This document shows, in pieces, positions 36,271 to 39,601 of a stretch of DNA of 64,000 bases. Each line of letters starts with the position of its first letter. The first letter of the stretch is position 1. The notes under the pieces were generated by a model. That model was not told where the DNA came from and searched no databases. It saw nothing but the letters and a program-made list of their open reading frames with translations. This DNA is from Escherichia coli (lineage in GTDB: Bacteria; Pseudomonadota; Gammaproteobacteria; Enterobacterales; Enterobacteriaceae). The translations under genes were made by a program, and so were the position numbers. Where the stretch lies: assembly GCF_003334405.1 (NCBI RefSeq), contig NZ_QOWM01000003.1, one strand, 5' to 3'.

Positions 36271-37554
36271 TTAGCCTTTAGCTGTTGCATTTTGTTTATG
36301 AAACAGTTCACGGAACACCGGATAAATATCATCCTGGTCGCGGATGTGCTGCATCGCAAAGTTGTCGAAAGTAGATTGCAGATGCTCATATTCTCGCCAC
36401 AATGTCTGATGTGCACGACGGGTAATTTCGATATAGCTGTAATAACGAACAACAGGTAATAATTTTTTCGCCAGGATTTCATGGCAAAGCGGAGAGTCAT
36501 CGGCCCAGTTATCGCCGTCCGATGCTTGTGCAGCGTAAATATTCCACTGTGCCGGGTTATAACGCTCTTTCACTACCTCATCCATCAGTTTCAGGGCGCT
36601 GGAAACAATGGTGCCGCCTGTTTCCTGCGAGTAGAAAAACTCATGTTCATCGACTTCTTTCGCCTGGGTATGATGGCGGATGTATACGACTTCCACGTTC
36701 TTATACGTTCTGCTGAGGAACAGATACAGCAGAATATAAAAACGCTTAGCCATATCTTTAGTGGATTGATCCATTGAACCGGAAACGTCCATCAGGCAAA
36801 ACATCACTGCCTGGCTGGAGGGATCGGGCCGCTTCTCGTAGTTCTTGTAACGTAAATCGAAGGTGTCAATAAAAGGGACGCGTTCAATTTTGGCACGTAA
36901 TTCTGCAATTTCTTTGCGCAGACGTTCCTCTTCCAGCAGTTGCGCAGGTTCACTGTTGCTGATGATGGCCAAATTCTCTTCCAGTGCATGAAGTTCCCGC
37001 CGCTTGCCTGCCGTCATGGCTGTGCGTCGCGCCAGTGAGTTCTGCAATGAACGCACAACGCTGATATTGGCCGGAACGCCGTTAGCGGTATAACCCGCCC
37101 GATGCGTTTTATATTCGGTCAGCTGGCGTTGTTGGTTTTGTTTCAGATTCGGTAAGGCCAAATCTTCAAAGAGCAGATCAAGATACTCATCTTTCGAAAT
37201 CTGAAAGACAAATTCATCCTGACCTTCACCATCCTGGCTGGCCTGGCCCTGACCACTGCCGGAACCTCCGCCGCCACCCTGGGGACGTTCAATTCGGTCG
37301 TTCTGGACGAAATGGTCATTGCCCGGATGCACGCGGTGGCGCAGACCGCCACGCCCCTGATGAAACATCGGTTCGCTAATATCTTCCGTGGGAATGGATA
37401 CGGATTCGCCGCTGTCGACGTCAGTCACCGAACGCTTATTAATGGCCTCGGAGATCGACTGTTTAATTTGCGCTTTATAACGGCGTAAAAAACGCTGGCG
37501 ATTCACCATGCTTTTGTTTTTGCCGTTCAGACGCCGGTCAATAAACCAGGTCAT
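36271..37554 (-). CDS. yeaH: DUF444 protein YeaH (partner of the YeaG kinase)
   Basis: ORF track 427 aa; Gly-rich low-complexity segment ([11 protein letters not shown]). Confidence 0.92.
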
Positions 37555-37666
37555 ATGCCCCCCGTACTACATTTGCCAACTGTATGCTACGCCTGTGTTG
37601 CCGCTTCTCAGGCCCACGGTTCGCTGTCGTTGTAGGCCCGGTAACATGTGTACCGGGCCAGGGTTG

Positions 37667-39601
37667 TTAAGACGATTTACGTACGCGCAAATACCATTCG
37701 CACAGTAAACGCACCTGTTTACGGGTGTAGCCTTTTTCCATCATACGGTCGACAAAGTCGTCGTGTTTCTTCTGCTCGTCGGTTGACGTTTTGGCGTTAA
37801 ACGAGATAACCGGCAACAGCTCCTCGGTATTGGAGAACATTTTCTTCTCGATGACCGTGCGCAGTTTTTCATAGCTGGTCCAGTTCGGATTGCGTCCGCT
37901 GTTATTCGCTCTGGCGCGCAGTACGAAGTTAACAATCTCGTTGCGGAAATCTTTTGGATTACTGATCCCCGCCGGTTTCTCGATTTTCTCCAGCTCGGCG
38001 TTAAGAGACTCGCGGTCAAACAGCTGCCCGGTATCCGGATCGCGATACTCCTGATCCTGAATCCAGAAATCCGCGTAGGTAACATAACGGTCGAAAATGT
38101 TTTGCCCATATTCGGAATAGGATTCAAGGTAGGCCGTCTGGATCTCTTTGCCGATAAACTCGGCATATTTCGGGATCAGATAACCTTTCAGGAACTCCAG
38201 ATAGCGTTCTGCCTGCTCTTGTGGGAACTGCTCGCGCTCAATCTGCTGTTCCAGGACGTAGAACAGATGGACCGGGTTTGCTGCCACTTCTACATGATCG
38301 AAGTTGAACACGCGGGAGAGGATCTTAAACGCAAAACGCGTCGACAGACCGTTCATCCCTTCATCGACACCGGCGTAGTCACGATATTCCTGATACGACT
38401 TGGCTTTGGGATCGGTGTCTTTCAGACTTTCGCCATCATAAACCCGCATCTTTGAATAAATGCTGGAGTTTTCTGGCTCTTTCAGGCGCGAAAGAATGGA
38501 AAAACGTGACAGTGTTTCGAGCGTGCCAGGGGCGCATGGGGCGTGAGTCAATTCACTGTGATTAAGCAATTTCTCGTAGATTTTGATCTCTTCGGAAATG
38601 CGCAAGCAATACGGCACCTTCACGATGTAAACACGATCGAGGAAGGCTTCGTTGTTTTTGTTATTACGGAAAGTGACCCATTCGGACTCGTTCGAGTGTG
38701 CGAGAATAATCCCGTTGAACGGCAGGGCGGAGATACCTTCCGTCCCGTTGTAGTTACCTTCCTGAGTGGCGGTTAACAAGGGATGCAGCACTTTAATCGG
38801 TGCTTTAAACATCTCAACGAATTCCATGATCCCCTGATTGGCGCGGCACAGCGCACCGGAATAGCCGTAGGCGTCCGGGTCATTCTGCGCGTAGTGTTCG
38901 AGTTTACGAATATCGACTTTCCCAACCAGCGCGGAGATGTCCTGGTTGTTCTCATCGCCGGGTTCCGTTTTGGCGATAGCAATTTGTTGCAGAATTGACG
39001 GCCAGACCTTCACTACCCGGAACTTAGTGATATCGCCACCAAATTCATGCAGGCGTTTTGCCGCCCACGGCGACATGATGGTGCCGAGATAACGGCGAGG
39101 AATGCCATACTCTTTTTCCAGAATCTGCGCATCTTCCTGCGGATTGAAAAGACAGAACGGATGATCGTTGACCGGGCTACGCTCACCGTTCGCGCTCAAT
39201 ACATAAATCGGTACGAGCTGCATTAATGATTTCAGTCGCTCAGCAAGCGATGATTTACCCCCACCCACAGGCCCCAGCAGATACAGGATTTGTTTCTTCT
39301 CTTCCAGCTCCTGAGCCGCGTGTTTCAGATAAGAGACAATCTGTTCAATCGCGTCTTCCATGCCGTAAAACTCTTCAAACGCCGGATAACGTGCAATGAC
39401 CCGGTTAGAAAAGAGTCGAGAAAGTCTGGGTTCCTGGGCTGTATCGACCATGACAGGCTCACCGATAGCCATCAATAGCCGCTCAGCCGCGTTGGCATAA
39501 GCACTGCGATCTTGCCGACAAGTGGTAAGAAACTCCTGCAGTGTGAACTCTTCGTCCTTGGCAGCTTCATATCGCTGGCGATAGTGATCGAATATATTCA
39601 T
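37667..39601 (-). CDS. yeaG: PrkA-family serine protein kinase YeaG
   Basis: ORF track 644 aa; Walker A GPVGGGKSS. Confidence 0.93.
   Translation of the reverse strand: MNIFDHYRQRYEAAKDEEFTLQEFLTTCRQDRSAYANAAERLLMAIGEPVMVDTAQEPRLSRLFSNRVIARYPAFEEFYGMEDAIEQIVSYLKHAAQELEEKKQILYLLGPVGGGKSSLAERLKSLMQLVPIYVLSANGERSPVNDHPFCLFNPQEDAQILEKEYGIPRRYLGTIMSPWAAKRLHEFGGDITKFRVVKVWPSILQQIAIAKTEPGDENNQDISALVGKVDIRKLEHYAQNDPDAYGYSGALCRANQGIMEFVEMFKAPIKVLHPLLTATQEGNYNGTEGISALPFNGIILAHSNESEWVTFRNNKNNEAFLDRVYIVKVPYCLRISEEIKIYEKLLNHSELTHAPCAPGTLETLSRFSILSRLKEPENSSIYSKMRVYDGESLKDTDPKAKSYQEYRDYAGVDEGMNGLSTRFAFKILSRVFNFDHVEVAANPVHLFYVLEQQIEREQFPQEQAERYLEFLKGYLIPKYAEFIGKEIQTAYLESYSEYGQNIFDRYVTYADFWIQDQEYRDPDTGQLFDRESLNAELEKIEKPAGISNPKDFRNEIVNFVLRARANNSGRNPNWTSYEKLRTVIEKKMFSNTEELLPVISFNAKTSTDEQKKHDDFVDRMMEKGYTRKQVRLLCEWYLRVRKSS

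Follow-up and report, generated by a model that had tools for sequence, protein, structure and literature searches.

What kind of enzyme is YeaG? The yeaG-yeaH operon lies within a 64,000-nt stretch of Escherichia coli DNA (RefSeq assembly GCF_003334405.1, contig NZ_QOWM01000003.1; hereafter, the window), and a preliminary description of this DNA took the two genes for a kinase module followed by its own terminator. The gene identities are correct: positions 36100-40040 show 100% identity to the K-12 strain MG1655, each of the complete E. coli genomes (5426/5426) contains a match at 95-100% identity, and RefSeq, Pfam, and NCBIfam agree on both genes, which occupy the minus strand, a detail that had been left out. 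The locus is the K-12 yeaG-yeaH starvation operon, known and repeatedly studied; the locus itself, its regulation, its association with a third gene, and doubts on the kinase activity have all been published, and the induction of the pair by stress and nitrogen starvation is documented (PMC4664914). The presence of yeaGH in the window adds nothing new, the operon being a conserved starvation "metabolic brake"; it is the label that matters. While the gene pair is real, we found in YeaG neither a kinase profile nor a kinase fold nor conserved catalytic residues, and the third gene, spoVR/ycgB, is detached. We propose, with a probability of roughly 60%, that YeaG is an AAA+ motor that acts with YeaH, an adaptor bearing a metal-ion-dependent adhesion site (MIDAS), and with YcgB to remodel or inactivate target proteins, akin to pairs of MoxR ATPases and von Willebrand factor A (vWA) proteins rather than to a Hanks-type kinase cascade.

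YeaG belongs both to the PrkA family and to the AAA+ superfamily. It matches the former over its full length (NCBIfam NF011999, 1338 bits against a cut-off of 576), with Pfam domains PF08298 (AAA_PrkA) at residues 19-380 (E 2e-187) and PF06798 (PrkA C-terminal) at residues 382-636 (E 2e-70). A first search for YeaG homologues returned only relatives above 86% identity, and diversity was added through the neighbours of YeaH homologues and through the Thermus clade; the resulting alignment of 61 PrkA proteins comprises gamma- and betaproteobacterial, phage-borne, and Thermus/Chloroflexi/Planctomycete-type members (the last at ~26% identity) and spans 26-88% identity. Throughout this set, G110, P111, V112, G113, K116, and S117 are invariant, conforming to the Walker A pattern GxxxxGK[ST], as are E260, E263, H302-x-N304-E305, D322-R323, and G418-x-S420-x-R422. 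The P-loop GPVGGGKSS had been noticed from the outset and is indeed present at residues 110-118, although not as a kinase hallmark: it is an invariant AAA+ Walker A motif in a protein with AAA+ fold neighbours. Mutants in the AAA+ region, K116A and R232A, do not complement (PMC4664914).

Comparisons beyond the family lead in the same direction. An hhalign comparison aligned YeaG 262-326 with RavA 114-173 (E 2.3e-4, probability 44%), covering the Walker B DE, LLTA, the sensor-1 ASNE/HSNE, and the DR finger. Searched against the PDB, the PrkA profile retrieved a Thermus homologue (9xip, E 3e-245), RavA (E 0.0018), and, over the Walker A region only, Lon. The AlphaFold2 model of YeaG (mean predicted local distance difference test score, pLDDT, 87.7; predicted template modelling score 0.80) displays an alpha-beta-alpha core of AAA+ type at residues ~100-330, followed by a region predicted to be all-alpha (335-644). 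Among the Foldseek neighbours of the model are LonB/LonC, NtrX, BchI, MCM, ClpC1, NorQ, RuvB, and PspF, with CbbQ also among the fold neighbours, so that, judged from the predicted structure, the nearest folds are those of bacterial enhancer-binding proteins (NtrX/NtrC), MoxR-type ATPases (NorQ, CbbQ), and Lon-type ATPases. The 30 chains of the Thermus homologue distributed over the PDB entries 9xip, 9xiq, and 9xir are the only hint of a ring oligomer.

YeaG departs from Hanks-type kinases in every feature that could be tested, namely profile, fold, and catalytic Lys and Asp. No Pkinase-type Pfam model matches YeaG at E <= 10, and no protein kinase appears in the PrkA-profile search of the PDB at the same limit, where shikimate kinase I, a P-loop enzyme that acts on a small molecule, is the sole kinase-named entry (E 0.14). 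Kinases are likewise missing from both lists of top structural neighbours, and in place of a bilobal fold with a beta-rich N-lobe the model is predicted to be all-alpha from residue 335 onward. The proposed catalytic residue, K426, is Lys in 46 of the 61 PrkA proteins and Asp in the other 15, all of Thermus type; no Asp between residues 382 and 644 is strictly invariant among the 61, the nearest being D551 (60/61), which sits inside a predicted helix. What likeness there is to Hanks-type Ser/Thr kinases amounts to the name and to reported phosphorylation in vitro. K426 follows by four residues the invariant GxSxR motif (418-422), which is placed at the N-terminus of helix 421-432 and is possibly an AAA+ sensor-2, the hhalign alignment having stopped short of the lid region.

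YeaH provides the second half of the argument. The preliminary description rightly called it a DUF444 protein (Pfam E 5e-191; NCBIfam NF003708) with a Gly-rich linker but missed its vWA/MIDAS nature. In the AlphaFold2 model (pLDDT 86.6), N-terminal helices give way to the disordered linker, after which come a long hairpin of helices and, at the C-terminus, an alpha/beta vWA domain; the linker is the only internal segment with a pLDDT below 50 (residues 94-106), and its Gly-rich character is retained in the consensus of 93 diverse DUF444 homologues (38-60% identity). All 5 MIDAS residues (D256, S258, S260, T315, and D346) are invariant in the same 93 proteins, making the motif complete. By sequence, YeaH had no match in the PDB and a fold search was needed; in the predicted structure, the C-terminal domain has the Rossmann-like vWA fold, with the vWA domain of NorD among its matches, and hhalign related YeaH to ViaA (E 5e-4).

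Taken together, these features suggest how the system may operate. YeaG would form an oligomeric AAA+ ring or motor in which ATP is hydrolysed through the Walker A K116, the Walker B E263, the sensor-1 N304, and the Arg finger R323; hydrolysis would be coupled through the MIDAS face of YeaH, together with YcgB, to the remodelling or inactivation of target proteins, which in turn would slow metabolism in starvation and yield the metabolic brake phenotype. Such a mechanism would resemble that of the RavA-ViaA, NorQ-NorD, and CbbQ-CbbO pairs, in which, as here, the gene downstream of the AAA+ gene encodes a vWA protein whose MIDAS is intact (yeaG and yeaH adjoin in 79/79 loci of our neighbourhood sample), and with which YeaG and YeaH share the above similarities to RavA (Walker B to Arg finger), ViaA (MIDAS), and NorD. 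The differences are equally clear. With a probability of only 44% for the alignment to RavA, placement in the MoxR family proper is not established; YeaG is twice the size of MoxR ATPases, constitutes its own Pfam family, and carries a large insertion separating strands beta2 and beta3 as well as an additional C-terminal region of ~200-300 residues, predicted to be all-alpha. Unlike the MoxR-vWA pairs, moreover, YeaG-YeaH has a third partner, SpoVR, and no known target or role in metal insertion.

A number of observations weigh against this reading. The support for a coupling of YeaG and YeaH is solely genetic (identical phenotypes and cofitness), and the all-alpha C-terminal domain at ~440-644 lacks an assigned function. 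RefSeq and most papers name YeaG a kinase ("PrkA family serine protein kinase" in both RefSeq and NCBIfam), and the Thermus PrkA structure (9xip/9xiq/9xir), which could differ, was deposited as "Serine protein kinase". P-loop protein kinases such as HprK/P do exist, and a Walker A motif is compatible with phosphotransfer. Autophosphorylation of E. coli YeaG and phosphorylation of casein are attributed to Tagourti 2008 by the papers that cite it; YeaG is reported to phosphorylate AceA in vitro in the presence of malate, with a Phos-tag shift only when malate is added, and the phosphoproteome of a yeaG deletion strain is altered (PMC8055822). The view that the substrates of YeaG are an open matter, taken in the preliminary description, is thus partly outdated. 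In addition, K426A, used as a catalytic mutant of the "STK domain" (serine/threonine kinase), fails to complement (PMC4664914, PMC10954441). On these grounds, YeaG could be a true Ser/Thr kinase, with an atypical fold or P-loop phosphotransfer, relaying a starvation signal through enzymes like AceA, with YeaH and YcgB as regulators or scaffolds. We consider this unlikely, though deserving of serious attention, as the profile, fold, and residue conservation described above all speak against it and so do 2 Bacillus homologues: PrkA of B. subtilis binds and hydrolyses ATP through its Walker A motif but has no kinase activity (PMC9512850), and for PrkA of B. anthracis both the kinase and the protease activity were negligible (bioRxiv 2025.06.16.659970). 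Furthermore, the AceA assay used 6 ug of enzyme, 2 h, and 10 mM ATP, its authors call the mechanism unestablished, and many phosphosites go up rather than down in the deletion strain (PMC8055822).

Still less probable, in our estimate, is that YeaG, as has been suggested for PrkA of B. subtilis, is a Lon-like ATP-dependent protease, which would break down specific regulators or enzymes in starvation with YeaH as substrate adaptor. The best Foldseek matches include LonB and LonC (E ~3e-5), and there is weak sequence similarity to Lon, although only residues 74-129, in the Walker A region, take part in it. An alpha/beta fold with a Ser-Lys dyad characterises the Lon protease domain; the C-terminal region of YeaG is predicted to be all-alpha, no fold match of Lon-protease type was seen, and no Pfam model of the Lon protease domain matches YeaG. 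A recognisable Lon protease domain in YeaG was accordingly rejected. B. subtilis PrkA does degrade alpha-casein in an ATP- and Walker-A-dependent manner, but the digestion took 24 h (PMC9512850), and the negligible protease activity of the B. anthracis protein argues against the same proposal.

The preferred reading, an AAA+ machine with a MIDAS adaptor, can be carried further only with more caution. That YeaG is no kinase in vivo, that YeaG, YeaH, and YcgB form a remodelling machine, that K426A is defective in the AAA+ lid, beside the sensor-2-like GxSxR motif, and that the trio has been co-opted by large phages is, as a whole, a tentative proposal to which we would give somewhat less than even odds. 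If the AAA+/MIDAS/SpoVR machine is real, substrates should be sought among the proteins that it binds and remodels and no longer among phosphosites. Scepticism about the kinase label is warranted, given that sequence conservation, fold, and the 2 Bacillus biochemical studies lend no support to the kinase model, and yet phosphoproteomic and evolutionary studies, including a 2026 study of methylotrophy in P. putida, read yeaG and ycgB mutations through it.

Genomic neighbourhoods indicate that the conserved unit is larger than the pair. In a sample of 80 loci (genomes), of which 79 had upstream DNA and 23 were from Enterobacterales, yeaG stands directly upstream of yeaH in 79/79 cases, and a SpoVR gene (NCBIfam NF008737, >900 bits) is present in 57/80, directly after yeaH wherever its position was inspected. 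Loci with SpoVR come from Vibrio, Shewanella, Alteromonadales, Aeromonas, Pseudomonas, and Vogesella. Within 6 kb of the pair, 21 of the 23 enterobacterial loci have no SpoVR gene, and there is none anywhere in the window; the other two enterobacterial loci, from Brenneria (L022) and Pantoea sp. Nvir (L023), have SpoVR matches whose position relative to yeaH was not inspected. By gene order, the conserved unit is thus the PrkA-YhbH-SpoVR trio, and in most of the Enterobacterales sampled its third gene (ycgB in E. coli) has been relocated. The trio comprises orthologous proteins in B. subtilis (prkA-yhbH plus spoVR) and in Pseudomonas, Shewanella, Vibrio, and Rhizobium (yeaG-yeaH-ycgB), shares induction by stress and starvation, and differs in E. 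coli and most Enterobacterales in that yeaH is followed by a hairpin and then by cdgI-dgcJ or a prophage. This is in line with the literature: the 3 genes form one operon in most bacteria and are split in E. coli into yeaGH and ycgB, with yeaG, yeaH, and ycgB being mutual best cofitness partners (cofitness >0.7 in 6 bacteria) (Price et al., bioRxiv 072470); the three-gene operon of R. etli has been confirmed by reverse transcription PCR (PMC3188799), and the phenotypes of yeaG and yeaH deletions are identical (PMC4664914). Within the pair, YeaG of E. coli is 76-89% identical to its counterparts in Vibrio, Photobacterium, Pseudomonas, and Vogesella; for YeaH, the corresponding identities in these loci are 57-75%. 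Judged from these values, YeaG is exceptionally conserved for a stress protein, far above its partner.

The same three genes travel with large viruses. PrkA, DUF444, and SpoVR genes occur in the same order in 41 of 43 phage-like contigs from IMG/VR (L124-L166), some of up to 543 kb, and SpoVR was not seen in the examined DNA of the other two, L124 and L158; phage PrkA proteins are 62-80% identical to E. coli YeaG. In metagenome contigs (L083:3892-8735 and L085:4051-9662), the trio lies beside genes for DNA polymerase A and a primase-helicase and phiTE-like genes. GenBank phages with PrkA include the Ralstonia jumbo phage RsoM2USA, three megaphages of more than 630 kb, and ~11 Thermus phage records (accessions for the phage PrkA observation: MG752970, LR756502, LR745206, and LR756504). 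A 2020 survey of NTP-dependent conflict systems in eLife mentions neither PrkA nor SpoVR. If YeaG-YeaH-YcgB is a remodelling machine, its occurrence in large phages points to use in host takeover; the intact trio of jumbo phages, megaphages, and Thermus phages would then presumably impose the brake, or remodelling, on the host.

The remaining features of the locus are collected in Table 1. In RefSeq, the minus strand carries, in order, yeaG ("protein kinase YeaG"), yeaH ("YeaH/YhbH family protein"), cdgI (formerly yeaI), and dgcJ, and mipA, on the plus strand, is divergent.

Table 1. Features of the yeaG-yeaH locus in window coordinates, ordered along the minus strand
Feature	Position	Strand	Basis
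Candidate sigma54 -24/-12 element TGGCATGAGAGTTGCT	39705..39720	-	One mismatch to TGGCAC-N5-TTGCW
yeaG 5' untranslated region (~93 nt, highly conserved), with SdsR site and AAGGA Shine-Dalgarno	39602..39694	-	Sequence, cross-species conservation
yeaG coding sequence, 644 aa, PrkA family	37667..39601	-	Open reading frame list, Pfam, NCBIfam, RefSeq
Walker A / P-loop GPVGGGKSS codons, YeaG residues 110-118	39248..39274	-	Alignment invariance
REP-like (repetitive extragenic palindrome) GC-rich hairpin GGCCCGGTA..TACCGGGCC, then TACAA, in the 112-nt spacer	37635..37659	-	Sequence, fold
yeaH coding sequence, 427 aa, DUF444/YhbH family	36271..37554	-	Open reading frame list, Pfam, NCBIfam
Gly-rich low-complexity linker, YeaH residues ~92-106	37237..37281	-	Sequence, AlphaFold2 confidence
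Predicted vWA domain, YeaH ~236-420; MIDAS D256-x-S258-x-S260, T315, D346	36295..36849	-	Alignment, fold
Predicted intrinsic terminator of yeaGH: hairpin 36266..36238, then T-tract	36228..36266	-	Energy, conservation

The hairpin with its T-tract, described as lying right after yeaH and before yeaI (cdgI), is there, just below position 36271 and hence outside the span that had been given for the module. Located 4 nt past the TAA stop codon, it consists of an 11-bp stem (6 GC pairs) and a 7-nt loop followed by TTTTTAGCTT (5 U), and has a folding energy of -25.4 kcal/mol against -7.4 +/- 2.2 for shuffled sequences (z = -8.0; 0/200 shuffles as stable); with an upstream A-tract included, the stem can reach across the stop codon. 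The case for a terminator rests on energy, position, and conservation, the last being the stronger evidence; a consensus terminator scan of the window found 8 candidates against 7.0 expected and does not discriminate by itself. A stable hairpin immediately follows the yeaH stop codon in 23/23 Enterobacterales orthologues. A stem core, CAGYC/GRCTG, is common to 14 of them, with 7 consecutive offsets (0 to +6) paired in 13-14 of the 14, and compensatory changes occur at 2 pairs (C-G to T-A in 3/14 and A-T to G-C in 3/14). The T-tract is less conserved than the stem across the order.

That this is the operon's "own terminator" is a well-supported prediction: the anatomy is canonical and conserved, whereas the Term-seq 3' end that has been mapped lies after yeaG and none is listed after yeaH. 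Indeed, the Term-seq tables of Adams et al. 2021 list no yeaH 3' end (PMC7815308), which counts against the terminator; the evidence is weak, since yeaGH is barely expressed there, the yeaG 3' end scoring ~1e3 compared with 1e5 for neighbours. The TERMITe supplements do not mention yeaG or yeaH. Alternatively, the element might act mainly in RNA stability or processing, or as a bidirectional barrier to antisense transcription from the variable region downstream. Its stem core (AATCAGCCAG/CTGGCTGATT) is conserved across genera with unalignable flanks, the T-tract is weak or absent in 5 loci (L003, L004, L008, L020, and L022), and the upstream A-tract makes the hairpin symmetric. Besides, Term-seq with bicyclomycin revealed a Rho-dependent 3' end at U00096 1870212 (-), window ~36297 (+), antisense to the 3' end of yeaH and ~30 nt past the hairpin as read on the opposite strand (PMC7815308), indicating that antisense transcripts run into yeaH from the side of cdgI. 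Nonetheless, we find this explanation quite improbable, as the E. coli element has the full canonical anatomy of a GC-rich 11-bp stem and 5 U right after the stop codon, cdgI is 146 bp away from it, and the low expression of yeaGH weakens the meaning of the absent signal.

The predicted terminator likely marks an ancestral break point, since it sits where spoVR would otherwise follow. The content of the region past yeaH varies: E. coli has cdgI-dgcJ there, many Enterobacteriaceae have a lambdoid prophage, and further loci have still other genes. In 37 IMG/VR prophage calls (L087-L123; e.g., L087:1285-7275), the end falls exactly on yeaH, at 87-95% identity to that of E. coli. In L087, UmuD-like, tail-fibre, and J-like tail genes begin ~130 nt past yeaH, and the hairpin AATCAGCCAG..CTGGCTGATT is retained beside the prophage; MN688132, "Enterobacter phage LAU1", groups with the prophage records that end at yeaH. 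These "viral" records include host flank, and the site past the yeaH terminator is thus a junction for prophages and variable genes in Enterobacteriaceae.

A second hairpin, between the 2 genes, begins 7 nt past the yeaG stop codon. Its fold z-scores (-0.7 and -1.0) are insignificant, the energy being unexceptional for a GC-rich stretch, and its support therefore comes from conservation and Term-seq. Fuller REP or BIME-like (bacterial interspersed mosaic element) palindromes occupy the orthologous site in other Enterobacteriaceae. Compared with the REP consensus, a ~35-nt palindrome of the GCC[GT]GATG...CCGGCCTAC type, the E. coli spacer retains no more than the shape of a palindrome and a CCGGGCCTACA tail at the 3' end, its CCGG(G)CCTACA tail being shared with the canonical REPs at ~62.7 kb. 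Term-seq placed a "primary" 3' end of yeaG at U00096 1868879/1868880, 76/75 nt upstream of yeaH (Adams et al. 2021, PMC7815308), which corresponds to window ~37630, ~5 nt downstream of the stem. The REP-like hairpin thus probably gives yeaG a stable 3' end of its own, and the protected yeaG-only RNA that would result probably sets the amount of YeaG above that of YeaH. Intra-operon REPs such as that of malE-malF are similar in that a GC-rich palindrome ending in CCGGGCCTACA lies between co-transcribed genes with an RNA 3' end just 3' of it, but the spacer element is shorter and, in E. coli K-12, degenerate. Directly upstream of the yeaH start, the block GTTGGCAAATGYAGTACGGGGGG (window 37555-37580, minus strand) is kept from Escherichia to Serratia and Brenneria, unlike the rest of the yeaG-yeaH spacer, which varies from 36 to 202 nt across those genera; the block extends well past the Shine-Dalgarno sequence and so could be a site of translational control or RNA binding. 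The REPs at window 62680-62770 form a pair in inverted orientation (BIME), one reading GCCGGGGGCGCTGCGCTTGCCCGGCCTACA (plus strand) and the other GCCTGATGGCGCTACGCTTATCAGGCCTACAA (minus strand).

Upstream of yeaG, transcription of the operon starts from a sigma54/NtrC promoter and, according to the literature, also from an RpoS promoter, and its conserved 93-nt leader is repressed by the small RNA SdsR. The yeaGH promoters depend on RpoS and RpoN, and pairing of SdsR at -31 to -22 represses translation, as backed by a reporter with compensatory mutations (PMC10954441); NtrC and RNA polymerase bind upstream of yeaG, with induction on nitrogen run-out (PMC4664914). The candidate sigma54 element TGGCATGAGAGTTGCT is kept in 10 of 13 enterobacterial upstream regions while its flanks diverge, and its position fits the 93-nt 5' untranslated region used by McQuail et al. 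(PMC10954441). Its weight derives from position and cross-species conservation only, because the sigma54 pattern has 40 matches in the whole window against 44 expected, without enrichment; a consensus promoter scan likewise gave counts equal to the shuffled expectation and was not used as stand-alone evidence. By our base count, CCTGTGCTAA occupies -31 to -22 (window 39632..39623), and the "-28/-27 CG" of PMC10954441 does not fit exactly. An open reading frame of 75 aa (39598..39825, minus strand), which has an ATGA overlap with the yeaG start and spans promoter and leader, was rejected as a gene: it is probably none, since its beginning precedes the sigma54 transcription start and it is not conserved, an 11-nt indel breaking its frame in E. 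albertii.

Two database entries under the name "PrkA family serine protein kinase" are over-long, a Salmonella protein of 910 aa (P0001) and an E. coli protein of 724 aa (P0002); both outscore the 644-aa protein and may be fusions, duplications, or artefacts of start-site choice or assembly. An Rfam scan of the window at gathering thresholds found no family at the yeaGH locus; the sole family detected was the small RNA sroD (RF00370, 115 bits), at 18407-18492 on the plus strand.

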